A stretch of 30,427 nucleotides of DNA, taken from positions 1 to 30,427 of the IMG/VR virus record IMGVR_UViG_3300042945_000250; one strand, 5' to 3'. The notes beneath the pieces are model-generated. The model was given only the letters and a program-made list of their open reading frames with translations, was not told the DNA's origin and ran no database searches. Shown here one piece after another: positions 2,642-30,427 of this stretch. The stretch comes from a virus. Its lineage: Duplodnaviria; Caudoviricetes. The translations under genes and the position numbers were made by a program. How positions within the stretch are numbered: the first letter of the stretch is position 1; each line of letters starts with the position of its first letter.

Positions 2642-2964
2642 TAGAATCTTACCCCATGCTTCTCTGGTCTAGTCTGATTGAATTCTGATTTTTCTTTCAA
2701 TACATGATCTAGTGATAATCTAGTATACCCTGCCTCAACAAGTCCTGCATAGAGATCTAGAGTTCTAATAAAAATATCAGCAAACTCCTTTGTAATCTCT
2801 TCTTCACCCTTGTCTTTGCGAATTGCTTCCATTGCCTCAACAACCTCTGATACGATCATCATCATTTGTTTTGCAACAAAGATATCATCTACATCTTCAG
2901 TCTTTGGCCAAAAGCCTTTTTCAACTGCAACCTTATGTAAATCAACTGCTAAACTGTCAAGCAT
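2641..2964 (-). CDS. MazG-like nucleotide pyrophosphohydrolase
   Basis: SEVVEAMEA...KEFADIFIR (ExxE...ExxD), followed by K...N..RP..HG, typical of single-domain all-alpha NTP pyrophosphatases. Confidence 0.85.
   Translation of the reverse strand: MLDSLAVDLHKVAVEKGFWPKTEDVDDIFVAKQMMMIVSEVVEAMEAIRKDKGEEEITKEFADIFIRTLDLYAGLVEAGYTRLSLDHVLKEKSEFNQTRPEKHGVRF
2722..2730 (-). promoter_or_regulatory. Candidate internal promoter GGGTATACT, 80 nt upstream of recA
   Basis: Matches the recurrent GGTATA(A/C)T motif but lies inside the MazG-like CDS. Confidence 0.4.
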
Positions 2965-5900
2965 TTATATCCTCCAATATAACTGTTCCATCTTTAGTCT
3001 TTCCAAAACTAAACTTATAAGACTTTCCTTCTTCTAATTTCATATACGCTTTTGCAAAAGTGGTAGGGAATACTGTAATAGAATGAAGATCTCTAGAAGT
3101 ATCTGCTAGTGTTAAAGATGCCATCTTTTTACCAGCCTTTGTAATTCTTGGTTTAAACGAAATAACAAACATCTCATCATCTGAAAATGGCAACTGCTTG
3201 TAATTTAAAAACTTAACCAATGCATTTGACGAACCATTTATTTCATCAGACGGTATTGCAGATACAATCCTATTATCGTTTGCAAGAATAAGGTAACTAC
3301 GACCAGTCTCAATAGTGGTTGCTTCATCGTCAAATATACCAATACTACCAGTCTTGTCCAAAATCTCAACTCGTGACCATCCTGTTCCTCTTTTAATAGA
3401 TTTTACCATACCAAGTAAAATGTAAGATCCCTTTTCCTCAAACTCCTCTACATCTTGAATAAATGCGTAGTAGTGTGAAGGAACAACTAGATTAAACTCT
3501 GGTAAGTTTAAATACTCGTATAAATTTTCTTTGATCTCATTATCATTTCTTGGATTATCTGTAAAGGTTGCTGCCCCAATAACCCTTAGTGCCTGTAGTG
3601 CACGACTATTTACTCCGTTACCCTTAGTAAAGGTAAACTCTTCTAACTGCTTATAGGATGTAAATGGTCTTCCTGCAATATATTTACTAGCAATATTATC
3701 TGAGATATATTTAATTCCAGTTAACCCAAAACGAATACCCTTACCTTCAATCTTAAAATCTGCATCAGAGTCGTTAATGTGTGGAAGTTTAATTGAGATA
3801 CCCATTCGCTTTGCTTCAATTAGATACTCCGTTCTTCCATCCTTGTCTTTCTCATTCTTAAGAAGTGCAAACATAAACTCTAGAGGGTAGTGATACTTTA
3901 GCCATGCTGTCCAATAGGATAGCGTTGAGTATGCTACAGCGTGAGACTTATTAAATGAATACCCTGCATGTGCCTCGAAGTCATGCCATAGATCACGAGC
4001 AGTATTAGGAGAAACAAAGCGAGAAGCGCCTTCGACAAACTTGTCTTTAAACTGATCAAACTCTTTAGCATCTTTTTTCTTTCCAATGATCTTTCTAACT
4101 TTATCTGCTTCCGACATGGACATACCGCCAAGCGATACGCATGCTTGCATAACTTGTTCCTGGTAAAGAATACAGCCATATGTTTCCTCCGTAAATTCTT
4201 TTAAAACTTTATGTGTATATCCAATATTTTGACGACCATGCTTACGCTCAATGTAGTCTTTTCCAATGGTGTTCATTGCACCTGGACGAACTAGAGCGTT
4301 TGATGCAGCAAGTTCGTTAAAGTTCTTTACGCCCATCTTAACAAGAAGGTTTGTGTATGGTGTTGCTTCACACTGAAACACCCCCTTTGTATAACCACTA
4401 GATAGCATCTCATAAACATTCGCATCTGACATATCAATCTCTAACAGGTTGATATCTTTATAATGATTTGTTTTAATCATATCTACTGTATCCTTAAGAA
4501 CTGAGAGTGTCTTAAGTCCAAGAGCATCGATCTTAATTAGACCAATACGTTCTGCCTCTTCCATATCTACAGCAACTACTGGGATACGTTCATCGCTTCC
4601 AGTGGAAGATCTTGTTTCCATTGGTGCAAAGCGAAAGATTGGGTCCTTAGATGTCACAACTCCTGCTGCGTGAATGCCTGTTCCACGAATACGACCACGA
4701 AGTTGTTCTCCATAAATCTCTACTTCTGGATACTTCTCACGAAACTCACGAGTTGATTTTGATGTGCAGAAATCATCCCACGTATCTACTAACTTCAAAA
4801 CCTTATTAACATCTGTTAATGGAATATTTAATACTCGTGCAACATCTCGAACAACACCCTTATCTTTAAATGAAAGGAAGGTAGCAATAGATGCAACATG
4901 TCTATATTGTCTAACTAGATAATCTTTTACTTCTTCACGACGAGAGTCTTGAATATCTGTATCGATATCAGGAAAGTCATTACGCTCTGGATTAATAAAG
5001 CGGAAGAACAGCAGGCCATGCTTGATTGGATCAATATCTGTGATACTTAGTGCATAACAAAGTAAAGATCCTGCTGCTGATCCACGACCAGGGCCAACCA
5101 TAATGCCTTCCTTCTTGGCCCAAGCAATCATGTTTCTAACTACAAGAAAGTAAGGCGCAAACTTCTTATCCTTAATGACTGAAAGTTCTTCATCTAGTCT
5201 GTCAAGATACTCCTGCTTGTCTACAATTCCTCTTTGAATCAATCCCTCTAAAGCAATTTCTTTTAACTCTTTATCTGGATTCTTGTATTGAACTGGAAGA
5301 AGATTAAGCCCTTCCTGAATTCCATAATCCTCAACCTTTTCAGCAATTGCAATAGTGTTTGAGTATATATCTGGACGATCAATCCCTTGCGCTTCCATTG
5401 CAGACTTCATCTCTTCATAAGAAAGAAGATGAATATCAAACTTATTAAATGTTATTTGACGGTCTTCTCCATACAAATAGTCAAGGCGCTTCATCATGTC
5501 AGGCTGCTTCTTAGACTTTTCAAAAGTATGCTCTTTGTCAATCTTAACGTGTGTGTTTAGTAGAAGTTTAAACTCTTGAATTTCTTTTTGATCTGTTGTG
5601 CTATGGTGGCAGTCAGGTGTTACAACAACCTGAACATTAAATTCGTCAGCCAAAGAAATAAGTTGCTTGTTTATTTCTGCTGGATTATGTGGCATTACCT
5701 CAATGTAGTAGTCGTCATTAAATACTCGCTTAAACCATTCGATATGCTTCTTAGCAATAGCAAACTCATTATTTTCAAGCGCCTTCACTAGAACGCTACT
5801 TGGACAAGCAGAAGTAACAATAATACCCTCTGCATACTTTTCAAGTATTTCAAAGTCAAACCTTGGCTTTTTAAAATAGCCTTCAGTCCATGCAATTTCA

Positions 5901-11098: not shown

Positions 11099-11235
11099 CT
11101 TCCCTCTTCAGAATCTACAGGTGGATTAAAAAATTTCCTATACCCACAAGACATACAGTATGTCTCTAGGTGCATAACAGAACTGTGAGTTCTATCAATG
11201 AACATTCTTCCACGACACTTTATACATTTTAGCAT
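11044..11235 (-). CDS. Small zinc-ribbon protein (63 aa)
   Basis: CIKC...CMSCG motifs and a TAATG coupling at 11235. Confidence 0.75.
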   Translation of the reverse strand: MLKCIKCRGRMFIDRTHSSVMHLETYCMSCGYRKFFNPPVDSEEGRWLLKKEQLRAKVTISPL

Positions 11236-11678
11236 TAGTTAGGTATACCAACTACGATTATGTTTAATCCAACAGACATCTTGCCAGTCTTGTTAAATCT
11301 TACAATGCCTTCGACCTTACTTGTTGTAACTCTTTTGATTACAACTGAAACATCATTTCCCTGATCAGAATCTCCATTGTTGACTACTGTTGCTGTAACA
11401 ATTGGGGCATACTTAAAGTCTACCTTAAAGTCATAAGAGAATGGTTTTTCTTCACTAGCAGTAATGTTTGTGTTATTATAAATATCTATATAGCCACCAA
11501 TGATTCTAGACTCTGATACCTTGACATATTGAGGCCCCAAGTCCTTAGTATCTACCGTAACATATTTATATGTAGATGATGATGATTGAGATGCTAAGTC
11601 ATTAATAGCATTTGCTAACTGATAAATATAGGCAACATCTAGTGGTTGCCCTCTTTCTGGTAGTGGAATTTTAGCCAT
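11235..11678 (-). CDS. Hypothetical protein, possibly a minor tail protein with a small C-terminal beta-sandwich (H-type lectin/gp53-like)
   Basis: N-terminal helix followed by FSYDF..DFKYAPIVTATV...NIIVVG, a pattern seen in small tail-tip beta domains (inference). Confidence 0.55.
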   Translation of the reverse strand: MAKIPLPERGQPLDVAYIYQLANAINDLASQSSSSTYKYVTVDTKDLGPQYVKVSESRIIGGYIDIYNNTNITASEEKPFSYDFKVDFKYAPIVTATVVNNGDSDQGNDVSVVIKRVTTSKVEGIVRFNKTGKMSVGLNIIVVGIPN

Positions 11679-11683
11679 AATAT

Positions 11684-11692
11684 ATTATACCA
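11684..11692 (-). promoter_or_regulatory. Extended -10 promoter TGGTATAAT, leaderless geometry
   Basis: Perfect TGnTATAAT fills the 14-nt intergenic gap and lies 5 nt before the ATG at 11678. No SD sequence. Confidence 0.7.
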
Positions 11693-18199: not shown

Positions 18200-18864
18200 T
18201 ACACTTCTTCCAGAGTTATATTTATATTCCAAAAGTCATGATTGCTTGCTCCACGCTTTACAACAGTGTATTTGAAATCTGAAATAAACATCTCGACTAC
18301 CTGATTGTATTGATTTAAATGTGCGTAGGCATTATCATCCTTGCCAAAATTAGAATACTTATCGTAAGCAAGATATACCCAGAACGATCCTATGTGGTTT
18401 TCATACCAGTCTAAAAGTTCAACTCCTCCTGCGCCACCATCAGTTGTATATTGTAGGGATGGGGTAATTATTTCTTTTGGCTTTCCATCACTGCCGAACT
18501 CAGGATTTAAATAGTGCGATCTAGATGGAAGCATTTCCCATGATGTTGATATTGTTAACTTATCTGCAATATGGTATGATCTCATACGGCCATTGATCAT
18601 TCTCTCCCGCTTTTCAATTCTGGTTGTAGAAATATCAATTGGCGATCTATTGTCGTCTGAAAGAATAAGAAATTGGTCTAGCATGGATGGACTAGTTTCA
18701 GAGCCAGGATCAGCATTTACCTCGTAGCCATTTGGAATATAAACCTTATAGTCTGGATTAGACTGTGTTGGGGCTGCTACAAGTGTTCCTGAGTTTTCAG
18801 AAAATAGTATAGCCTGTGGTCTTGTATACTTCTTACGACCTGCCATATAGTTTGCTGTAGCCAT
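18199..18864 (-). CDS. Putative distal tail (Dit-like) minor tail protein
   Basis: First gene after the TMP. It has RMINGRMRSY and ends in WNINITLEEV, a typical Dit/tube-fold terminus. Confidence 0.7.
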   Translation of the reverse strand: MATANYMAGRKKYTRPQAILFSENSGTLVAAPTQSNPDYKVYIPNGYEVNADPGSETSPSMLDQFLILSDDNRSPIDISTTRIEKRERMINGRMRSYHIADKLTISTSWEMLPSRSHYLNPEFGSDGKPKEIITPSLQYTTDGGAGGVELLDWYENHIGSFWVYLAYDKYSNFGKDDNAYAHLNQYNQVVEMFISDFKYTVVKRGASNHDFWNINITLEEV

Positions 18865-21800
18865 TATAGTCTATTCCCCCTAACTCTTTGTGAGTCAATA
18901 CCCCTGATTTGTGCCATAACAACTCTTGCAATGTCGTCAGGATTTGCATCAGATTTTACATTAACGCTTAGGTTATAATTATACACTGATTCGCCAATCG
19001 CTGTGCCATTATTGATTGCTCTCATATTTTCTGCCCCGTGAGCATTCACAGCATATCTACTCATTACAAATTCTCCTGGGCTCAAAAGTGCTGGAACTGT
19101 GTCAGTTCCAAATGAAGGAATCTTTTGAGTAACCATTCCTCCAGATGCAAGTTTGTTTAGTCTTCCCCCCATAAGTTTATAGATATAGTTTCCATATCTA
19201 ACATGTGTTCCATCATCCTTTTTATCATAGGAGATATTCATTTCCATGCCAATTCTTGCCAAGCCAAGTTTATTTAAAACTCCATTGGTTACATAGTCAT
19301 TTGGATCTTTTAGACTATCTTCTTTATCAATAACCAGCATTGCTGTTTTTCTCTCTTCTTTAGATAGAGTTTTGTTGGGTATTAGTTTCCATGGATTTTG
19401 ATATGAACCAAGAGGCTTTTTCATATTATAATTTTTGCTATCTTCTCCTGCATTTGCTGGAGGCTTTGCTGCAGTGATTTGTTGCCCAGGCTTAGTAGGC
19501 ATACTTGCTGCCTTCCAATTTGCATAGTCAGTATTATAATTTGATAATGCCTCTGTCCCATACTTTGCGTAATCCTGAATTACTGGAAAGTTCTGAGCAC
19601 CTGGTGCATAGGTCTTTGGTGTAAACGCTACATTAGATTTTGTTCCAGTTGCCTTACCCCATGCCTGCATATCGTTAGCATAATAACTAGCACCATATGT
19701 TATGCCATACTTTTTATTATAATCGGCTAGAACTGGTGCCTTTGAATTTTTATTATACGTTGCAGCCTTCCATACTGGGAAATTGCTTGCTACTGTTGGA
19801 TCTAATACTGTCTTGTCATCCTTCTTGTCTCCACCACCACCTGATCCACCACCTGAGCCACCACCTGAAGTGTTAACTCCAGATCCATCTGACTTAGATG
19901 GCTTGACACTCTTAAGATTATCCTTAATGTATTGATCTGCACTATTTTTAGAGGGATCATTATAAGAAACATTTGGATTATCTGCTGCAGTAGTTGGCTC
20001 TGTTACTGGAGCGACTGGGGCACCCTTTGACCACTTCTTATTAAATGCTGCTTGAGTATATGCTGCAACAGTGTATCCACCATTTTGATTAATTTTAAGT
20101 TGTGCGAGATCTGCATCATACTCTGCTTTTTCTTTTTCATATGCTTTTAGGGCCTCTGCACGTGCTTTATCTGCAGCATCCTTTTTCTCTTGTGCAAACT
20201 TTTCATTTTCAGCAGCCTGCTTGATCATTGTATCTTTTACTGATTTGGCTCCATCTGTAACCGTTGATGCATTAAGACCAATCGTCTTATTTATCTTATC
20301 CCATCCATCTTCAATCTTCTGAACTGATGCAAGCATTGACCCCATAAGATTATCAAAGTCTTGTGCTGCAACTGAAGAAGCCTCAATTTTTGCTGCAACA
20401 GCATCCCAGTGATCTCTAGTCTGACCCTGAACCTTTATGCTATCAACCAACTGCTGCATGGCATATTCGTCATTTGCAATTTGATTATTTCTTGCATCTA
20501 TTCCATCTTGTAGAGGCTCAATTTGCTTTTTGTTTATATTATAAATCTCATCTTCTTTTGCACGAATAGCAATTTGTGCTGCTTCTCTTTTTTCTTCTAA
20601 GTTATAAATAGCGTCCTGCTTGGCTTGAATTCTGTCAAGGAGTTGTAGCCTTGTGAGCATTTCATTGCCAACCTTGGTAGTTGCTGTGTTTTCAAGTTCG
20701 TATATCTTTTGAGCATTCTGATATTGTTTTTCTAAGATCTCATCTCTTGTTAGGCCAGACTTCTCTCCTCTAAGACTATTTAGTTCGTTTTGTCTAGATT
20801 GTTCTAAAGCCTTTGATGCATTCTCTGCATTTGTATCTGCCTGAGATGCTCTCATTTCTTGCGCTGCACGGGCTGCTGCTGCAATGTCACCTTGTGACAG
20901 AGCATCTGCAAGACCTAACTGCTGCTTTTGCTGATTAACAATTTGAGCATTAACTTCTGCTACCTTAGAAAGTGCTGTAGCCTGATCATCATAACTCTTA
21001 TTTATCTGCTCTGCAGCATGATTCATTACATCAAGGTCATGAGTTAATTGTGCATTTTGTTCATTAATCTTTTGAATAGGTCTTTCGAATGCAAGTTCAA
21101 TAACTCTTTGCATGTCGCTGATTTCTTCTTGATATGCTTCAATAACACGAATAATCTCAAGTTCCATCTTTCGCTGCATGTCTTCAATTGTTTTTTGAAT
21201 TGGTCTAATCTGATTAAATGTTATGTTCTGAATATCCAACTGAGCCTTTTCGTTGGCTGCTTTATTATCCTTTAATCTCTTAACCATTGCTGTAGATCTA
21301 GCATCTACACCAGTTCTGATAAGTTGTTCTTGAACAGCAAACATTCTGTTAACAAGTTCCATGCCAGGTGCTGCTGCTGCAGCAAAGTCGCCAGCATTGA
21401 ACTTACCCTTAATCTCAACAATCTTTTGACCCTTGATATTATTTAAGTAATCTGAAATTGCCTTTGAGTCAATCTTTCCATCTGCAAGATCATCCATTAA
21501 TTCTTTTGCAAGATTTGGATCTTCTAACACTGTTGCAATTTGTTCAACAGAGTATCCAGCAACCTTTAGTGCAGAAGCAAGTTTTGGCATAGTGCCTGCA
21601 GCAAACTCCATCGCTGCATTCTTTGCTAGTAGGTCATTAATTACTGCTTGCTTCTGTAATGCATCATTTGCTGTTTTTAGGTCTGCAATATATTTTTTAA
21701 GATCTGTCTTTGCGATTAGGCCAGATGAAAAAGCAGCAGCAAGTGCTGTATTAGATACTAAGTCAAGTGCTTTGGATGTATCCACACCCTGTGCTTTAAG

Positions 21801-24800
21801 CATAGCAAAGGCTTTATACTGATTATTTGTATTTTGAATTGCTTCTGCTTGTGCAATATTAAAGTCATCTAGCGGAGCCTCGTTGTAGGCTGCCATAAAT
21901 GCTTTTCCTGCTTCAGAGAAACCAGCAATCCTACTTTTATCTACAACGGTCTTACCCTTAACCTTTTTAGTTTCATAGGTAAACATTGACTGATTACCCT
22001 TTTTAGTAGGGTCAGCATCTGCGCTTTTTAGTTTTTCAAGGTCTTCCGCTGATAGTCCAGCGATCATATCTCTAAATTCTTTTGGAGCCTTTAGTGCAAT
22101 GAGTCTTTGTTGCAAACCGCCAAATAACTTAAACATATTTGCAACGTCTTTTTGTGCATCCTTACTTCTAAATGCTGCAAGCATTGATTCAATTGGCTTT
22201 TTTGCATTGAATGCTTGATCTCTTACCATCTTGATACGCATTGCAAGTGAGTCTAAGAAAGCAAATGGATTGTCCTTTTCTCCCTTTCCAGGACCATCAT
22301 TAAATGGTTTTGTCTTAGAGTCAATAACTGGAGTTGTTCCAATTGCAATCTGAGTCTTTGCAGACGCTACAGCAGTAGGATCTACCTTTACCTTTGTAAT
22401 TAACGCATCGATCTCAAGTTCAGTCTGTTGCTTGATATATGTGTTAATGTCTTTTGGTGCATTTCCTGCTTTTCTAAGTGCATTAAGTTTATCAACTGCT
22501 AGTGATTCTGCCTGAGATCTAAAGTAGTCTCTTGCTTCTGGGCTTGTATAATCCATAGACATAATTTGGTTATATACCATTGTGTATGTTCTTATGGCAT
22601 CCGATTGCTTTTTAGCATCTCCCTTAAACTCTTTATTTATATAGTCTAAGAATCCTTGATCAACCTTTACGTTTGTATCATTTGTAAATTGAGTTACAAC
22701 ATCTAGAGTTACCTCTCCACCCTTAAGACCTTTAATCTTACCTTCAAGTTCATCCAATCTATCAATATAGTATTGCATTCCAGAAACGCCGCCCATTTCC
22801 TTAACGACAACTTCCATATTGATTTCTTTGCCATCAAGCCAAGAGGCTAGACCAAACAAATCTGATAGTTTTTTAAATGATTCATTGTCTTGCGTTGTTA
22901 CTTCAAGGGCTATCTCTTGTGCATATTCTTTGTCTTGGAAATTTGTTAAAAGCATCATAAACTCAGCAGTTGCTCCTGCACCGTGCATTCTTGTTCCGAT
23001 GTTTAATACTGTCTCTAGTGCTGGAAGTTTTCCTTCAAATAGATCAAGCATCGCTGTTTCTTGGTTTGGAGTTAGAGTTCCATTTGCCATAAGAAGTTTC
23101 ATCTTAACTTCAAATGACTGTGCTTCTTTACCGCTCTTAAATCCAGCCTCAGTGTAGTTATCTTTTCCAAGACCTAGGAATGCTCCACCATCGCTATACT
23201 TTGCAAGTCTGTCTTGAACTGTCTGCGCCTGTGTTGCTTGCTCTGTATTTGCATACTTATCAGTTACTGCTCCTGAAAGGCTTTGCATATATGCTGCTTC
23301 TCTTTGGTTTCCTCCACCAAAAAGTTTGTATGCTCCGAGAGTAAGTCCATCCATCCATGTATTTTGATATTGAATGTTTTCATTAAATCTCTTCATTGCA
23401 TTATCTGTTGCATTTGCAACAAGATTATTCATCTGAAATTCTGAGTCAAGTGCTTTTTCTTTAAGTGTAGTAAGTTGTCCTTCTAACTTAATCTGTTCTT
23501 TTTTATTTGTAGTTTGAGCAATTTGTGCCTGTAGAGTTCTGATCTCATCATCATACTTTCTAGCAATTGCGTCTGCCTGCATTTGTGCTGTTTGAACTGC
23601 TACGGCATCGGCTGCAGCAAGACCTGCTGCTTCTACTGCTCCAGACAAACCATTGTATTTTGCATTTTCCATATCTGCTAAATACTTTTCTGACTTTGCC
23701 TGTGCTGATGTGTTTAGTCTCATTGCAACAATAAGAGGATCTTTGGTAAGATCTTCACCATTGGGACCAATAAGGGCTGCAAGTGATGCATCAACTTTTA
23801 TACCAAGTGATGTATCTTTAAAGTTAACTCCAATTTGATAAGCAATGCTTTGTGCCTGTTCTGCACTTAAAACTCCGTCTTGAACATAGGCTGCAAGTTC
23901 TGTTGCAAATACTTGTGCTGCTTCTTTTGCCCCAGACTTTTTGATATTATCTTGAAGGGTTTTCCCCATCTTCTTTCCAATATCAGATTGCATAAAGGTA
24001 TCGCCAAAGTCTGAACCCTTTCTTTCTCTTACAATATAATCTCTTGTAGTTCCTTCTGCTCTCTTACGAGCCATTAATTCAGATGATCCAACCTTGCCAG
24101 TGATCATTCCAATTTCTTTCATCTTTTGCGTTGAAGCAGATGTCTCACGAACAAACTTTGCTTGTGCTGCATATGATGCCTGTAGTTTTTTATTTAATGC
24201 ATATAGACCAACTCCAACTGCTGTGATTGCAGCAACTGCCCAACCAATTGGCCCCATACCAGCAAGCATGGGTGCCATCTGTGCTACACCTGCTGCAGTT
24301 CCTAAAGCACCAGTTACTGCTGGTGGTGCGCCAACTGCTCCAGCAACCATAGTCGCCATACCAAGAGCACCTGCTGCTTTACCAGAAAACTTACTTGCTT
24401 TTTCTCTACGCATTCCACGCTTCTTTTTAAGAATCTGCTTTTCACTAAGAGTTGTTGGCTGTCCAGTTTCTGGATCAAGAACAATCTGTCCCTTTTTGTT
24501 TTGAGTAAATCCTTGTGTTGTATCTGTTCCATATGCTTCTGCAAGCGCTGTGTCAAGATCGACATAGGTGGAAGGAACTTTATTTCCAGCCTGACTTCCT
24601 GGTGGAACTGGTCCGTTTAGTGGTGGCTGACCAAGTTCTGCTCTCTTCTTTCTGTTGGCTTCTTCTTCAAGTCTAAGTGCTTCTCTTTTTTCTTTTGAAA
24701 TCTTATCATTGGTTGCAGAAATTTCTTCTGATGAATTTGCTATCTCTTCTTGAGAAATTCCAGTCTGCTGTGTTGCATTGACTACATTTTCTAAATTGCT

Positions 24801-27800
24801 GGATGTTGCATTTGCTAGTTCACTACTGGTAACAACATTATCTGCATGAGTTGTTTGTGCATCTACAGTCTCAGATGTGGCATCGACTAGTTCATCAGTC
24901 TTATCAGCAACAAGTGTTGTAGAGTCTGCAGTATCGTTTGTTCCCTCAACAATACGTCGAAGTCCATCGCCTTGCTCTTGTGTTCCATTAGAAACAAGTT
25001 CTTGCTCTTTCTTAACATCTGTTGCTGCCTTAACTGGATCCTGTGAAGACTCTTGTTCTGCATTAGCAATTTCTGCCTCTGCCCACTTTTGTCTTGCTTC
25101 TGCATATCTTAGTTCTGCTTCATTTGCCTTTTCTCTCGCTGCCTTAACTTGTTCGTCAGTAATTGTAGTTGGAGAATTTTCTCTTTTTTGCTTTGCCTGC
25201 TCTTTTTCAATTGCTGCTGCTCGTGCACGAGTTATTGCTGCTTCATTTTCAGCCTTATCTGCATCTTCACGGGCTTTTCCAATATTAATTGTATTGCCCT
25301 TAATCTTAATACGTGATTTACTTTCATCTTTTATCTGTGTAACAACTTGAGATTGTGCCGTTACTGCTTCTTCTGTTTTAACTGCTAACTGGTCAGCAGC
25401 GTCTGCTGTTCTTGTTGAGGATGAAATAATTAGTGATGTCGCCTGTGACGCTGCTGGAGTATCCGACATTGAGTCTACTGTTGCGGTTGCTCCACGCTTT
25501 CTTCTTTGTCTATCTTGTGACTTAAGTATTTGTCTTTGTTCAAGAAATTCTGGAGTATTTAGGTCATCATAAAAAGCCTTATTTGGAAGATCCATCTTAT
25601 CAACTTTTGCCTGTGTTTCTGCTGCTGTAGGAACTGCTGCATCTCCAAGTCTTGATGATTGAGCCCTTACTCCTGCTTCCCCATCTCTCATACCCTCTAC
25701 AATGCCATCTGCAACCTCTTTGCCAGCCTTACGACCCTTTTCAGAAGGTGATGATGCATCTGTTCCATCTGGCCCTCTGAGACCATCAATGACTGCTGCA
25801 CCAAGTGCTGCTCCGTCTGCTCTTGCTTGATCTATAGTAGATCCAACTGTTAGGTTTGCCATATTTTGTTTTTGATATGTCCCCTGTAATGACTTTACCG
25901 ACTTGCCATCTACCTGAACCTCGTCCTGCAAACCAAGTTCTTGTCTTAAAGGAACGTCAGACTTTTTAGGAACTGCAATTCGATTACCTTGACCATTTCT
26001 TCCATCATTAGGAGAGAACACAGCATAGGTTGTTGTCTTTAATAGATTGTCTACTGCCTGCCTTAATGTTGCATCAGCAGCATCTATTCTTTCATTTGCT
26101 CTGGCTACTGCGCCATAAAATTCTTCTTCTCCAAAGTTTTCTGGAAGATTGCTAATTTCTTCAGCAAGTATTCCGCCATAACTATCCATGCTTTGCTGTA
26201 GTCTTGCAAATGCCTCTGGATCTTTTAATGCTTCTTCTAGAGTTGTTCCCTGAATTCTTGCCCACTCTTGATAGATTGGAGCCAATGTCTTTCCTGCATC
26301 TGGACCATTAAATAATGCAGCCATCTCATCTCTTGGCATTTCAAAGTTGCCGTCTGTATCTCTTTTATTTGCTCTTTCAGGAGTCATGAAACCAAAACTA
26401 CTTAGTCCATACGCACGTCCACCATGTTCTGCAGCATCAGCGAATGCTGTTGATAAACTTGTATCTTTTCTAGTTCCATCTGGAGCAACTCTTTGTGATT
26501 GGCGACCTAGTCTGCCGAGTTCTGCTGGATCACTAATCTGCTCATGTGGTGCTGCTCCGTGAGCAAATACATAATTCTCATCCTCAAACCTTGTTGCAGA
26601 AGCAGCGTGATACTGCTCTCTAAATGGTCTTTGAGTTACTGAGTCTGTCTGCTTAGTTAAATTTTCAATTGCTTTTGCTGTAACTGTTTCTAGTTCTGCT
26701 AATCCCTCAGCGATTGCTGCTTTGAGTCTGTCAGCAAACTCTGGTCCAACTCTTTCTGCTGCCTTTGTTAACTCCTCTGTTAATTCTTTTGCAATTGCTG
26801 CCTGCGACTTAGGGTTTGGACCCATCGCTGAAACTGCTGCAACAAAGTCTTCTCTGTTTAGTCTAACTAACTCTGCTGCAGTTTGTTTTGTATTTACACC
26901 AAGGGTTCCTTCGTTATACTTTCTTACGTTATCCCCCATAAGTGCAGAAAGCATAGCCTTACCTTCTGGACTCTGTGCAATGCCTGCTGGAACAACTGCC
27001 TCGCCTGGAGTAAGCATTGCTGGAACTGTGTCTTTATTACCAGTTCCTGGAACACTAACAATTCCTTCTGCATACTTCTTTACCTTTGGTAATCCAGATA
27101 CGGCACCTGCTGGACCTGGGACTGTATTAAATAATCCTGGTGCAGATGATGCAAGTGTTCTTGCTTGGCTTGCTGCATTAGTGTATGCTGCTGCCAAAGA
27201 GTTAACTGCTGCAGATTCAACGTTAAAGGTATCAATAAGATCTTTATGAGTTAAATGCAAGGCATTTGACTGTGCTAGGTTTTCAGTTTCTTGCTGAGTT
27301 AAATAATCAAATCCACCACCAAGAATATTGTTTTGCCCATTTAACTTTGCAATACCATTTCTCATCATTGCAAATAACTTTATGAGGTTTGCGACTCCGT
27401 TAGCAACAAGACCAAATGTCATCAGTGCTGCTGGGGCAACTAGTCCAAGAACTCCAACAATAGTTGTAATTACCTTCTTTGTTCCATCACCAAGATTGTT
27501 AAACTTCTCAAGGATTGTAGAGGCAAACTTTACAATTGGTGTAACTGCCTGCAAGAATGCCTTTCCTACTGGAACAAGTTGTAGTTTTAAATCTTCTAAT
27601 GACTTCTTAAACTTTGTTCCGACTGCATCTTCTACCTTGCCAAGTTCTCGCTCAGATAGGATTGCAAGTTCTTCAACAGATGCACTAGCAAGTCCGAGTG
27701 CTCTGGCAGCCTGAGAAGAGTCTTTTGTAATGTTCTGGAATAATGTTGATAGACGAGCGAACTGGAACTTACCGAACATCTGTTCAATTGCTCTTGCACG

Positions 27801-29126
27801 GTTAAGTGGATCAAGTGTGTCTAGGGCTCTTGCAAAACCGATAACTGTTGACTTTAAGTTTCCAGCATTTGCATCTACAATTCCCTTAATGTTAATGCCA
27901 AACCCTGCAAGCATTTCACTTACTTTTTTAGATGGATTAATTAAGGAAGCAAGACCAGACTTAAGTGCGTTAGCACCTTCTGATGCGTTGATTCCACCTT
28001 CCTTCATTGCAGTCATAAAGAATGCAAGGTCTTCTACAGATCCACCAAGTTGCTTTACAACTGGACCAGCCTTTGGAATTGCTGTAGTTAAATCTTCAAT
28101 GGATAATACTGTTTGGTTTTCTACTGCGTTAAGAAAGTTGATCTTTTGTGCAAGTTGCTCTGAAGATATTCCAAATGCATTCTGTAGAGAGATGGTAGTT
28201 TCAAGTGCCTGTTGCTGTTCTACTTGTCCAAGAACCGCTAGTTTTGTTGCTGCTGTTACCTGTGCAGTTAATGCATTTCCTGTAAGACCCATTGCTGCTG
28301 CATCTGCAGCCATAGTCATTGTATCTACAACAGCAATACCATACTTTGTAAATTCTTTTGCTAATGTCTGAATTTGTTTTACTGCTTCATCAGTTTGCCC
28401 CATACTAGTAGACATGTCGCCATAAACTCTAGTAAACTTAATTACAGCCTTTTCCATTTCCATAAATGCCTTGGATGCATAAGATCCAAGCATTGTTAGA
28501 GGAACTGTCAAACCAACCATCAACTGACGGCCAGCCCACTGAGTATTCTTACCAAAGTTTAGAAGTTGTGTTGAGCCCTGCTTAAGTAACTGATTCAGGA
28601 ACTGCTGTCTTTGTGCAGCCATCTGCACTCTTGTTGCGTAGTCGGTATACTGACCATTTACCATTTGAAGGTGTTTTGGAACTACCTGCAAAACCTTTAC
28701 TAAATCTCCATTGGCATTGGTTAATTGAACATACTGCGTTTGTAAAGCCTTTACTCTGTCTTTACGAGCACGATTGATAATGTCTCTTTCTTGTGCAAAG
28801 ACACCCTTTAGAGTTTTTGTATTTGCAGTGGCTGCTGCTGCTGTGAACCTGAAATACTCTCGCATTGAGAGTTTATTCTTCTCAAGCGCTTCTGTAAATG
28901 CTCCAGTGCTGGAAGAAACAGTTCTTTGGCTTGCAACAAACTTTCCAGTAGCATTGATAGACTGGATCAGTTGTTGGTTTAGGCCCTTTTGGGCCTCCAT
29001 AGCAGCAACATTGCCCTGCGTTAAGGCTTGATTAAATCGGCTAAGGCCTGCCTGTAAATTGCGTAGATTTGCTAACGCTTCTTGCGTATTTAAATTTACG
29101 TCAATATTTGCATTTACATCAGCCAA
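18864..29126 (-). CDS. Tape measure protein (TP901-family core), 3420 aa
   Basis: Ala/Gln/Lys-rich helical sequence with a TP901-like core (AAMG...ATKLAVLG...GINASEGANALKS...MFG), two hydrophobic segments, an SPS..G..GIVEG motif and a C-terminal ASGG..DTVPALLSPGEFV motif. It lies directly after the chaperones, with a TTG start and a GAGGG RBS. Confidence 0.95.
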   Translation of the reverse strand: MADVNANIDVNLNTQEALANLRNLQAGLSRFNQALTQGNVAAMEAQKGLNQQLIQSINATGKFVASQRTVSSSTGAFTEALEKNKLSMREYFRFTAAAATANTKTLKGVFAQERDIINRARKDRVKALQTQYVQLTNANGDLVKVLQVVPKHLQMVNGQYTDYATRVQMAAQRQQFLNQLLKQGSTQLLNFGKNTQWAGRQLMVGLTVPLTMLGSYASKAFMEMEKAVIKFTRVYGDMSTSMGQTDEAVKQIQTLAKEFTKYGIAVVDTMTMAADAAAMGLTGNALTAQVTAATKLAVLGQVEQQQALETTISLQNAFGISSEQLAQKINFLNAVENQTVLSIEDLTTAIPKAGPVVKQLGGSVEDLAFFMTAMKEGGINASEGANALKSGLASLINPSKKVSEMLAGFGINIKGIVDANAGNLKSTVIGFARALDTLDPLNRARAIEQMFGKFQFARLSTLFQNITKDSSQAARALGLASASVEELAILSERELGKVEDAVGTKFKKSLEDLKLQLVPVGKAFLQAVTPIVKFASTILEKFNNLGDGTKKVITTIVGVLGLVAPAALMTFGLVANGVANLIKLFAMMRNGIAKLNGQNNILGGGFDYLTQQETENLAQSNALHLTHKDLIDTFNVESAAVNSLAAAYTNAASQARTLASSAPGLFNTVPGPAGAVSGLPKVKKYAEGIVSVPGTGNKDTVPAMLTPGEAVVPAGIAQSPEGKAMLSALMGDNVRKYNEGTLGVNTKQTAAELVRLNREDFVAAVSAMGPNPKSQAAIAKELTEELTKAAERVGPEFADRLKAAIAEGLAELETVTAKAIENLTKQTDSVTQRPFREQYHAASATRFEDENYVFAHGAAPHEQISDPAELGRLGRQSQRVAPDGTRKDTSLSTAFADAAEHGGRAYGLSSFGFMTPERANKRDTDGNFEMPRDEMAALFNGPDAGKTLAPIYQEWARIQGTTLEEALKDPEAFARLQQSMDSYGGILAEEISNLPENFGEEEFYGAVARANERIDAADATLRQAVDNLLKTTTYAVFSPNDGRNGQGNRIAVPKKSDVPLRQELGLQDEVQVDGKSVKSLQGTYQKQNMANLTVGSTIDQARADGAALGAAVIDGLRGPDGTDASSPSEKGRKAGKEVADGIVEGMRDGEAGVRAQSSRLGDAAVPTAAETQAKVDKMDLPNKAFYDDLNTPEFLEQRQILKSQDRQRRKRGATATVDSMSDTPAASQATSLIISSSTRTADAADQLAVKTEEAVTAQSQVVTQIKDESKSRIKIKGNTINIGKAREDADKAENEAAITRARAAAIEKEQAKQKRENSPTTITDEQVKAAREKANEAELRYAEARQKWAEAEIANAEQESSQDPVKAATDVKKEQELVSNGTQEQGDGLRRIVEGTNDTADSTTLVADKTDELVDATSETVDAQTTHADNVVTSSELANATSSNLENVVNATQQTGISQEEIANSSEEISATNDKISKEKREALRLEEEANRKKRAELGQPPLNGPVPPGSQAGNKVPSTYVDLDTALAEAYGTDTTQGFTQNKKGQIVLDPETGQPTTLSEKQILKKKRGMRREKASKFSGKAAGALGMATMVAGAVGAPPAVTGALGTAAGVAQMAPMLAGMGPIGWAVAAITAVGVGLYALNKKLQASYAAQAKFVRETSASTQKMKEIGMITGKVGSSELMARKRAEGTTRDYIVRERKGSDFGDTFMQSDIGKKMGKTLQDNIKKSGAKEAAQVFATELAAYVQDGVLSAEQAQSIAYQIGVNFKDTSLGIKVDASLAALIGPNGEDLTKDPLIVAMRLNTSAQAKSEKYLADMENAKYNGLSGAVEAAGLAAADAVAVQTAQMQADAIARKYDDEIRTLQAQIAQTTNKKEQIKLEGQLTTLKEKALDSEFQMNNLVANATDNAMKRFNENIQYQNTWMDGLTLGAYKLFGGGNQREAAYMQSLSGAVTDKYANTEQATQAQTVQDRLAKYSDGGAFLGLGKDNYTEAGFKSGKEAQSFEVKMKLLMANGTLTPNQETAMLDLFEGKLPALETVLNIGTRMHGAGATAEFMMLLTNFQDKEYAQEIALEVTTQDNESFKKLSDLFGLASWLDGKEINMEVVVKEMGGVSGMQYYIDRLDELEGKIKGLKGGEVTLDVVTQFTNDTNVKVDQGFLDYINKEFKGDAKKQSDAIRTYTMVYNQIMSMDYTSPEARDYFRSQAESLAVDKLNALRKAGNAPKDINTYIKQQTELEIDALITKVKVDPTAVASAKTQIAIGTTPVIDSKTKPFNDGPGKGEKDNPFAFLDSLAMRIKMVRDQAFNAKKPIESMLAAFRSKDAQKDVANMFKLFGGLQQRLIALKAPKEFRDMIAGLSAEDLEKLKSADADPTKKGNQSMFTYETKKVKGKTVVDKSRIAGFSEAGKAFMAAYNEAPLDDFNIAQAEAIQNTNNQYKAFAMLKAQGVDTSKALDLVSNTALAAAFSSGLIAKTDLKKYIADLKTANDALQKQAVINDLLAKNAAMEFAAGTMPKLASALKVAGYSVEQIATVLEDPNLAKELMDDLADGKIDSKAISDYLNNIKGQKIVEIKGKFNAGDFAAAAAPGMELVNRMFAVQEQLIRTGVDARSTAMVKRLKDNKAANEKAQLDIQNITFNQIRPIQKTIEDMQRKMELEIIRVIEAYQEEISDMQRVIELAFERPIQKINEQNAQLTHDLDVMNHAAEQINKSYDDQATALSKVAEVNAQIVNQQKQQLGLADALSQGDIAAAARAAQEMRASQADTNAENASKALEQSRQNELNSLRGEKSGLTRDEILEKQYQNAQKIYELENTATTKVGNEMLTRLQLLDRIQAKQDAIYNLEEKREAAQIAIRAKEDEIYNINKKQIEPLQDGIDARNNQIANDEYAMQQLVDSIKVQGQTRDHWDAVAAKIEASSVAAQDFDNLMGSMLASVQKIEDGWDKINKTIGLNASTVTDGAKSVKDTMIKQAAENEKFAQEKKDAADKARAEALKAYEKEKAEYDADLAQLKINQNGGYTVAAYTQAAFNKKWSKGAPVAPVTEPTTAADNPNVSYNDPSKNSADQYIKDNLKSVKPSKSDGSGVNTSGGGSGGGSGGGGDKKDDKTVLDPTVASNFPVWKAATYNKNSKAPVLADYNKKYGITYGASYYANDMQAWGKATGTKSNVAFTPKTYAPGAQNFPVIQDYAKYGTEALSNYNTDYANWKAASMPTKPGQQITAAKPPANAGEDSKNYNMKKPLGSYQNPWKLIPNKTLSKEERKTAMLVIDKEDSLKDPNDYVTNGVLNKLGLARIGMEMNISYDKKDDGTHVRYGNYIYKLMGGRLNKLASGGMVTQKIPSFGTDTVPALLSPGEFVMSRYAVNAHGAENMRAINNGTAIGESVYNYNLSVNVKSDANPDDIARVVMAQIRGIDSQRVRGNRL
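19831..19866 (-). repeat. Coding low-complexity repeat GGGSGGGSGGGG (flexible linker in the TMP)
   Basis: ccaccaccacctgatccaccacctgagccaccacct on the + strand. Confidence 0.8.
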
Positions 29127-29153: not shown

Positions 29154-29471
29154 TTAAATATTTAACAAAGATGTTGTTTCGCCAAGTTGGATTCCTGACG
29201 CTGCATCAATGATTTCATAGACCGTTGGAAGGTCGATGTTGTCTTCAATCTTTTCTCTGTCTTCTGCAAGTTCTGGACTATACTGCTTAAGTGCAATCTG
29301 CACACAGTCTAAAAGAACATCCATAGACTTCTCATTATCTTCTGCTACACCTGTCAACTCTGAGAACTTCTTCATAAATGGTTTTAGAAGTGAGATCTTC
29401 AGTGGTTGAACTGTTAGTTCTGTTCCGTCAATTAAGGCGACCTTTTTCTTGTCTTTTGCCTTTTCTGCCAT
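29154..29471 (-). CDS. Tail assembly chaperone, short (gpG-like) form
   Basis: 105-aa acidic helical protein between the major tail gene and the TMP, with a perfect AGGAGG RBS (29479-29484). It is paralogous to the N-terminal half of 29523..30206. Confidence 0.8.
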   Translation of the reverse strand: MAEKAKDKKKVALIDGTELTVQPLKISLLKPFMKKFSELTGVAEDNEKSMDVLLDCVQIALKQYSPELAEDREKIEDNIDLPTVYEIIDAASGIQLGETTSLLNI

Positions 29472-29498
29472 TGTAATGCCTCCTATGTTAGTAAAATA

Positions 29499-29507
29499 AT
29501 TATACCA
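29499..29507 (-). promoter_or_regulatory. Extended -10 promoter TGGTATAAT for the short chaperone and TMP
   Basis: Perfect TGnTATAAT in the 51-nt intergenic gap, followed by a short AT-rich leader and AGGAGG. Confidence 0.7.
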
Positions 29508-29522
29508 TAATCAGGCCTATTT

Positions 29523-30206
29523 TTAATCAACTCTTTCGTATTGTAGGCCCATACCAATACCAAAACCAGCCTTTTGAGCATTAGTTCCTTGATATGCAAG
29601 TATATCATTTGGATCGCCAGATGCGCCACCACTAAATACCCTTGCTTTCATTTCTTCCCAAGCATTGCTCTTCTTTGTATTTTTATCTAAATCAACGCCT
29701 TGCATTGCTGCTAAGAATTTCTTATTTGAGTAGTCTGCTTCACGGCTTACCTCTAGAGTTTTCATTAGTTCTGCCATAGATAAAGATCTCTCTAGTTCTT
29801 CATAGTCTTTCCATATTCCCAGCAAAAATACTTCTGCCTCTAACTGTGCAAGATCTAGGTCTTCCCAGGCGTTTCCACCTTTAACCGCTTGCTTCTTAAC
29901 TGTATCATCTGATTGCTCATTTATCTTAATACCTGCAGCAATATCTAATATTTCATAGACCATATGTATGTCTACATAGTTTTCAAAAACTTCTGGACTT
30001 ACTGCGATTTCTGGACAAAACTGCTTCATTGCAAATCTAGCACATTCTGTCAGGTGAGTAATTGCCTCAATGTCATCTTGAGAGTTTCTAACATTATCAA
30101 AATAATTCATAATCATTCTAAGATATTTAATTTTTGATGGCGACAACTCTAGTTCTCTATCATCAACTAGGATCATATTTTTTGTTTTATAAACTTCTGT
30201 GGCCAT
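29523..30206 (-). CDS. Tail assembly chaperone, long (gpGT-like) form encoded as one continuous ORF
   Basis: The N-terminal ~97 aa align with the 105-aa neighbour. The C-terminal WEDLDLAQLEAEVFLLGIWKDYEELERSLSMAEL resembles the gpT extension. It lies directly after the major tail gene. Confidence 0.8.
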   Translation of the reverse strand: MATEVYKTKNMILVDDRELELSPSKIKYLRMIMNYFDNVRNSQDDIEAITHLTECARFAMKQFCPEIAVSPEVFENYVDIHMVYEILDIAAGIKINEQSDDTVKKQAVKGGNAWEDLDLAQLEAEVFLLGIWKDYEELERSLSMAELMKTLEVSREADYSNKKFLAAMQGVDLDKNTKKSNAWEEMKARVFSGGASGDPNDILAYQGTNAQKAGFGIGMGLQYERVD

Positions 30207-30212
30207 TATATA

Positions 30213-30221
30213 AGTATACCA
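30213..30221 (-). promoter_or_regulatory. Extended -10 promoter TGGTATACT, leaderless geometry
   Basis: Abuts the terminator U-tract and lies 6 nt (TATATA) before the ATG at 30206. No SD sequence. Confidence 0.7.
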
Positions 30222-30250
30222 AAAGAAAAACCCAACCCCGAAGGGTTGGG
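30221..30250 (-). terminator. Rho-independent terminator after the major tail gene
   Basis: The minus strand reads CCCAACCC-TTCG-GGGTTGGG-TTTTTCTTTT: a perfect 8-bp stem, a C(UUCG)G tetraloop and a U-tract. Confidence 0.92.
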
Positions 30251-30269
30251 CTTCTCATATTAAGTTGTA

Positions 30270-30425
30270 TTATGCTGGGATAGTGCGGTCTACGATCTTG
30301 CCGTATGACGCATCATCATTTGGAAGAAGACGGAATGATACTTCGAACATTGTCGCTTCGTCACGCTTTGCTGATACTGAAACATTCTCGATTGAGAGTG
30401 CACGGTATGCAACATAAATGCGTTC
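30270..30425 (-). CDS. Major tail (tube) protein, C-terminal fragment truncated by the window edge
   Basis: Manual translation: ...ERIYVAYRALSIENVSVSAKRDEATMFEVSFRLLPNDDASYGKIVDRTIPA*. The sequence is beta-rich like a tube-protein end and is followed by the terminator, chaperones and TMP. Confidence 0.8.
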   Translation of the reverse strand, partial: ERIYVAYRALSIENVSVSAKRDEATMFEVSFRLLPNDDASYGKIVDRTIPA

Positions 30426-30427
30426 CA

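Follow-up and report, generated by a model that had tools for sequence, protein, structure and literature searches.

In phage lambda the short and long tail assembly chaperones, gpG and gpGT, are made at a ratio of about 30:1 that has been described as crucial, and the account in PMC5009743 presents the -1 frameshift as conserved across long-tailed phages. Some T4-like phages, by contrast, are described as having one short gene for a tail assembly chaperone (TAC), plus one fused long gene, with no frameshifting (PMC10274946, citing Vladimirov, Gautam, Davidson 2022, Virology 566:9), and going by that description the principle of using two genes is therefore already known. For actinophages or siphoviruses we found no report of a two-gene arrangement in the open-access literature, a body of work that leaves the subscription journals mostly uncovered.

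The DNA that we analysed, referred to here as the window, is the whole 30,427-nt stretch of IMGVR_UViG_3300042945_000250, a genome fragment of an uncultured freshwater phage, bearing replication genes as well as a tail module on the minus strand. The sequencing runs in which the window is contained were from lake, freshwater, and aquaculture metagenomes. Along the minus strand the major tail gene is followed by a terminator, a 227-aa ORF, a 105-aa ORF, and the tape measure gene, so that the two ORFs lie where G/GT chaperone genes usually do, after the gene for the major tail protein and before the one for the tape measure protein. The major tail protein gene is cut by the window edge and only its 3' end is present (30270..30427; this and all tail-module coordinates below are on the minus strand). 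It matched phrog_2175 (E-value 1.6e-8) and had 50-60% identity to the gene at the same position in six Streptomyces phages, where it is annotated as major tail protein in five of the six. On its 3' side lies a hairpin with a U-tract that resembles an intrinsic terminator (30225..30256, -24.3 kcal/mol, z -5.6). The tape measure gene (18864..29126) encodes a protein of 3420 residues, the likely client of the chaperones, with matches to PHROG tape-measure families at E-values as low as 8.5e-92 and to PF10145. We noted that this protein has the motif D-T-V-P-A-x-L-x-P-G-E twice, near residue 700 and near the C-terminus, and that long stretches of it have no Pfam match.

An initial annotation of the window, made from the sequence alone, had aligned the N-terminal ~97 residues of the 227-aa ORF (29523..30206) by hand with the 105-aa ORF (29154..29471) and counted about 34 identities in 98 columns with one gap. 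Our local alignment gave the same counts (34 identities over 98 columns, score 163), the maximum score in 5000 shuffles being 59. By BlastP the 105-aa ORF matched residues 1-99 of the 227-aa ORF with 34 of 100 positions identical, one gap, and an E-value of 7e-19, and a profile-profile comparison of the two families returned a probability of 99.7%. Both the short ORF (3.6e-19) and the N-domain of the long ORF (residues 1-97, 29916..30206; 5.6e-15) matched phrog_10504, and in AlphaFold models the order of strands and helices was identical in the short protein and this N-domain. The long ORF had also been described as continuing in frame into a C-terminal extension, and residues 114-227 (29526..29867) indeed matched a separate family, phrog_10474 (5.8e-16). 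As had likewise been stated, 27 nt separate the stop of the short ORF from the tape measure start with no open extension, all three frames closing within ~17 codons. We refer to the long gene as GT (TAC-NC), with a G-like N-domain and a T domain, and to the short gene as stand-alone G (TAC-N).

Homology to phage proteins bears on the identity of the two genes as tail assembly chaperones. Among GenBank phages the long protein matched 127 Streptomyces and three Rhodococcus records, typically as two pieces, and a tblastn search with it against 50,697 phage records, carried up to an E-value of 1, returned Streptomyces and Rhodococcus phages only. The short ORF had up to 43% identity to annotated tail assembly chaperones of Streptomyces phages, a label that represents the names given by SEA-PHAGES depositors and not experiments, and it was 57% identical to the G of an uncultured frameshifting relative, L216. 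The C-terminal half of GT was 51% identical to T of Streptomyces phage Sham (over residues 111-189 of the long ORF) and 62% identical to T of L216. Two expectations of the initial annotation were thus borne out, namely that the single G of frameshifting relatives should match both paralogues, which we found in Streptomyces phages as well as in uncultured relatives, and that their -1 frame should match the C-terminal extension. Since this half of the protein is homologous to a T encoded in the -1 frame, the long ORF can be regarded as a permanently fused counterpart of the protein that frameshifting yields. No TAC family came up when both proteins and 37 G homologs were scanned against Pfam, and a sequence search of the PDB found nothing significant. 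In a fold search (model pLDDT 81) the top BFVD match was named tail assembly chaperone (E-value 8.8e-7) and was accompanied by many weaker TAC rows; the PDB fold matches were weak, both to YqbN (Z 5.4, rmsd 4.5, 85 aligned), which was tied with unrelated helical proteins, and to HK97 gp13 (E-value 1.7). Matches in the ESM Atlas bore the automatic name "tail assembly chaperone family"; TAC or T families of Pfam came up there only at 0.86-0.87, and these matches are leads only. Fold comparison is compatible with TAC membership, but weakly so where solved structures are concerned.

To compare architectures we used four scans of viral contigs, taking the best 80 matches of each; many of the resulting 320 loci are redundant, so the counts are not frequencies. 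Together with six Streptomyces loci and the window these made a set of 327, among which 189 loci had a fused GT with G downstream, 131 had G with T in the -1 frame, and seven were truncated or broken. Distinct at the protein level were at least 114 two-gene loci and at least 94 frameshifting loci, and the two-gene order that had been noticed in the window is accordingly a conserved one among its relatives. Apart from one indel case (L162), no complete locus among the 327 had a fused GT without G, or G placed before GT. The short gene was present in 78 of the 80 loci that were the best matches, the other two being a contig end and a likely chimera. In L036 (3733-4100) the G gene starts normally and then passes into unrelated sequence, probably at a chimeric contig end, and in L162 (1-647) the frame is broken within the G domain of GT, probably by a sequencing or assembly indel. 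All five of the related near-complete genomes (100-118 kb; three two-gene, two frameshifting) had WhiB, which suggests an actinobacterial host. Over 27 disjoint pairs, dN/dS was 0.05-0.08 for the GT N-domain, linker, and T, and 0.074 for stand-alone G, values by which both genes and the linker are under purifying selection.

The frameshifting loci, found in Streptomyces BE/BK phages and many uncultured relatives, have one G gene with a -1-frame ORF overlapping its end. All six Streptomyces records have T in the overlapping -1 frame and a G annotated as tail assembly chaperone, and a joined frameshift CDS is annotated in Yaboi and Sham. In the frameshifting loci the conserved start of T (W-x-x-L-x-L-A-x-L-E) precedes both the G stop and any T start codon, as a frameshift requires. 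Of 37 frameshifting representatives, 35 had an in-frame X_XXY_YYZ heptamer (G_GGA_AAC, C_CCA_AAC/T) where G ends, whereas 500 synonymous randomizations averaged 6.0 and never exceeded 12; among 43 representatives of stand-alone G only one had a heptamer. Following G, the -1 frame is open for 92-134 codons in frameshifters and for at most 20 in two-gene loci. Any stimulatory structure 3' of the slippery site in these relatives was weak and variable (mean z -1.3, n=35). The two representatives without a heptamer belong to the BE-cluster Streptomyces phages (L081, L082, L085, L177-L183), which have no canonical heptamer and carry C_CCG_GAA in the place of C_CCA_AAC/T, with T still in the -1 frame; C_CCG_GAA is a candidate non-canonical slip site. 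T is annotated as a separate hypothetical gene in several GenBank records. In the window the features of a programmed -1 frameshift are absent, with T in frame with G and the short gene having neither a heptamer nor an open extension. We considered an in-frame A_AAA_AAT at GT codons 8-10 as a source of G and rejected it, as a stop follows within ~5 codons and the site cannot give G.

The two genes also have different start signals. Six nt 5' of the GT start codon is an extended -10 element (TG-n-TATACT, 30213..30221), from which a leaderless mRNA is predicted. Of 43 representatives, 40 had an extended -10 before GT, 34 of them with a spacing of exactly 6 nt to the start codon, and one had an SD-like motif. 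This element fits the leaderless-gene criterion of TANNNT at about -12 given in PMC3160421, which describes leaderless genes as common in Actinobacteria. Elsewhere in the window another gene (11235-11692, 147 aa, no PHROG or Pfam match) has an extended -10 five bases before its ATG, a leaderless-like layout. Stand-alone G is preceded by an extended -10 element (TG-n-TATAAT, 29499..29507) and a Shine-Dalgarno sequence (AGGAGG, 29479..29484); all 43 representatives had the former, 24-38 nt before the start in 42, and 42 had an SD-like motif. The G of frameshifters is laid out in the same way, 36 of the 37 representatives having an SD and 28 an extended -10. Codon adaptation to the major tail genes was 0.59 for stand-alone G versus 0.47 for the GT N-domain, with G the higher in 40 of 43, and in frameshifters it was 0.60 for G versus 0.48 for T; the G domain of GT has thus fallen to the level of the rarely translated T. 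Judged by these features, stand-alone G is the gene that retains the ancestral promoter-leader-Shine-Dalgarno signals and codon bias. Given the differing start signals and codon bias, we infer that an excess of G is likely set by initiation signals, not recoding. The codon pattern would fit many copies of G for each GT, as lambda has; a leaderless start need not mean a low output, however, as leaderless translation is described in PMC8485053 as potentially robust in Actinobacteria, namely mycobacteria. The one RNA run compared, X20, contained only a small part of the sequence words and does not extend over the GT gene.

A tree of 111 G domains placed 42 GT N-domains in one clade (100/99) and 42 stand-alone G in another (100/94), which dates the split to before the two-gene group radiated. 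The two-gene phages fell on one side of a branch with SH-aLRT values of 85 for the major tail protein (MTP), 72 for T, and 86 for MTP+T, the last from a quick tree with the long-branch rows L200, L275, L226, L239, and L186 left out. When rooted on the Streptomyces phages, the two-gene phages were nested in the frameshifters, next to the G_GGA_AAC group and L302. With moderate strength, the trees favor a single origin of the two-gene phages from frameshifting ancestors. We rejected the idea that a further duplication arose independently in L235-L243, as L243 falls within the same clades. The tape measure tree paired the frameshifting L302 with the two-gene L075 and rejected two-gene monophyly (AU p 0.035). 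The MTP of L075 (MTP 2203-2811, GT 2885-3568, G 3616-3936) is 98% identical to that of the two-gene L039 and its tape measure N-terminus groups with L302, so L075 is likely mosaic, and this locus suggests that a two-gene cassette can serve a tape measure protein from a frameshifting sister lineage. As to a reversion to frameshifting in L302, the MTP and T trees put that phage outside the two-gene clade, and mosaicism in L075 explains the conflict better.

The initial annotation had inferred that two diverged paralogues replace recoding, a reading that the paralogy, the frameshifting relatives, the conserved two-gene order, and the loss of the slippery site all support at the sequence level. 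We consider it highly probable that a fused G-T gene and a paralogous stand-alone G replace the single G with its -1-frame T, and that they supply the long and short chaperones without frameshifting. Under the mechanism we propose, transcription from the major tail gene would largely end at the terminator. Little GT would be produced, from a leaderless mRNA of its own whose codons are poorly adapted, and much G, from its own promoter, leader, and strong Shine-Dalgarno sequence with better-adapted codons; any read-through from the GT promoter would add to the G. As in lambda, the tape measure protein (3420 aa) would be coated by G, and GT would bring in the tail tube protein via T; chaperones of this kind would both be missing from virions. 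The arrangement may have arisen when the promoter-G/T unit of a frameshifting ancestor was duplicated once in tandem, with fusion of G and T and loss of the leader in the first copy and loss of T in the second, after which the G domain inside GT would have diverged faster; duplication in situ is the best fit, although unproven. We lean somewhat toward a fuller account for this large freshwater actinophage clade, in which a single duplication replaced a recoding event that is among the best conserved in phages, the leaderless/SD promoter pair rebuilt the ratio, and the G domain of GT specialized. On that account, a G domain in GT that is only 37% identical to G and yet has a dN/dS of 0.08 would imply different optimal surfaces, which frameshifters cannot evolve separately.

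The same two functions could have had another origin, the fused GT or its G domain having been imported by recombination from another lineage. In the best trees a long branch leads to the GT N-domain, which falls outside the group of stand-alone G and the nearest frameshifting G, these two being 56% identical to each other whereas the GT N-domain has 39% identity to the latter and 37% to the former, and the tail module does recombine, as in L075. However, the T domain of GT clusters with that of the nearest frameshifters (SH-aLRT 99), the GT N-domain has 29-36% identity to distant groups, none of them closer than the near group, and monophyly of the GT N-domain with stand-alone G was not rejected (AU p 0.33, on thinned sets with L305 and L200 left out). 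We therefore regard an import as unlikely, and less in keeping with the data than a duplication in place.

Explanations in which the two genes do not divide the work in this way fared worse. Were the short chaperone derived in part from the 227-aa ORF, whether recoding led to a stop or the linker was cleaved, with the second gene a supplement, the in-frame A_AAA_AAN near the junction in eight of 43 GT genes would be of interest; but it is absent from the other 35 and from the window's own junction, an A run is often expected by chance from the conserved V-K-K peptide, and at the protein level purifying selection acts on the linker (dN/dS 0.05), which makes such a contribution very improbable. 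Equally hard to sustain is the proposal that GT alone is the chaperone and the short paralogue has some other role, for which one could point to the paralogues being only 34-37% identical. It is the short gene that is the conservative copy, by its identity to frameshifting G (57%) and its ancestral start signals and codon bias, and it immediately precedes the tape measure gene and was found in 78 of the 80 loci among the best matches. It is scarcely credible that assembly errors created the fusion or the second copy: a frame break does occur in the GT of L162, yet the layout is common to at least 114 distinct relatives. The initial annotation had raised an assembly indel as a way in which it could be wrong. 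In a public sequencing run (X1, record 4), the contig over 28543-30427 differed from the window by two substitutions and no gaps, although this run may be the window's own source sample; G and T lay within one stop-free ORF in all of the 80 best matches to the long protein. Replacement of the frameshift by a fused GT and a stand-alone G remains the reading that we prefer.

Like lambda gpG/gpGT, the window locus has a short G form and a long G+T form encoded between the major tail and tape measure genes, and its relatives have the overlapping -1 frame with X_XXY_YYZ heptamers. Unlike lambda, the window locus has no frameshift and has two genes, GT then G, each with its own start signals, and its two G domains are 34% identical rather than identical. 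The Streptomyces BE/BK phages (Stanwilliamsviridae; Evy, Yaboi, Sham, Circinus, JimJam, Belfort) resemble it in having homologous G (30-43%) and T (41-56%) in the same neighbourhood, and several of them have TG-n-TATAAT, a leader, and an SD before G; they differ in that G occurs only once, with T overlapping it in the -1 frame. Taken together, the frameshifting sister lineages, the two-gene descendants, and one mosaic genome form a natural before-and-after series, with which it can be asked whether the frameshift matters solely for setting the ratio, whether one and the same sequence is required in G and in the G domain of GT, and whether there is an advantage in escaping dependence on host tRNA modification, which is described as shifting the lambda ratio (PMC3296357). 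The comparison also corrects the annotation of two "hypothetical" genes in thousands of metagenomic protein clusters (6272 and 2368 matches, which may include fragments and frameshifting forms).

The T4-like phages, whose short and fused long TAC genes we take to be those numbered 26 and 51, are alike, on the T4 side by description only, in having a separate short gene and a fused long gene with no frameshift. They differ in having contractile tails, and the window lineage, which lies beside the Stanwilliamsviridae actinophages, is probably unrelated to them; in the window the two genes are adjacent and clearly alignable, and frameshifting sister lineages survive. The nesting of the two-gene phages inside frameshifting actinophages implies, as far as the trees go, an origin independent of the T4 genes, and on this reading the window lineage would offer an independent and traceable replacement of a textbook recoding event, with cis-signals that can be tested.
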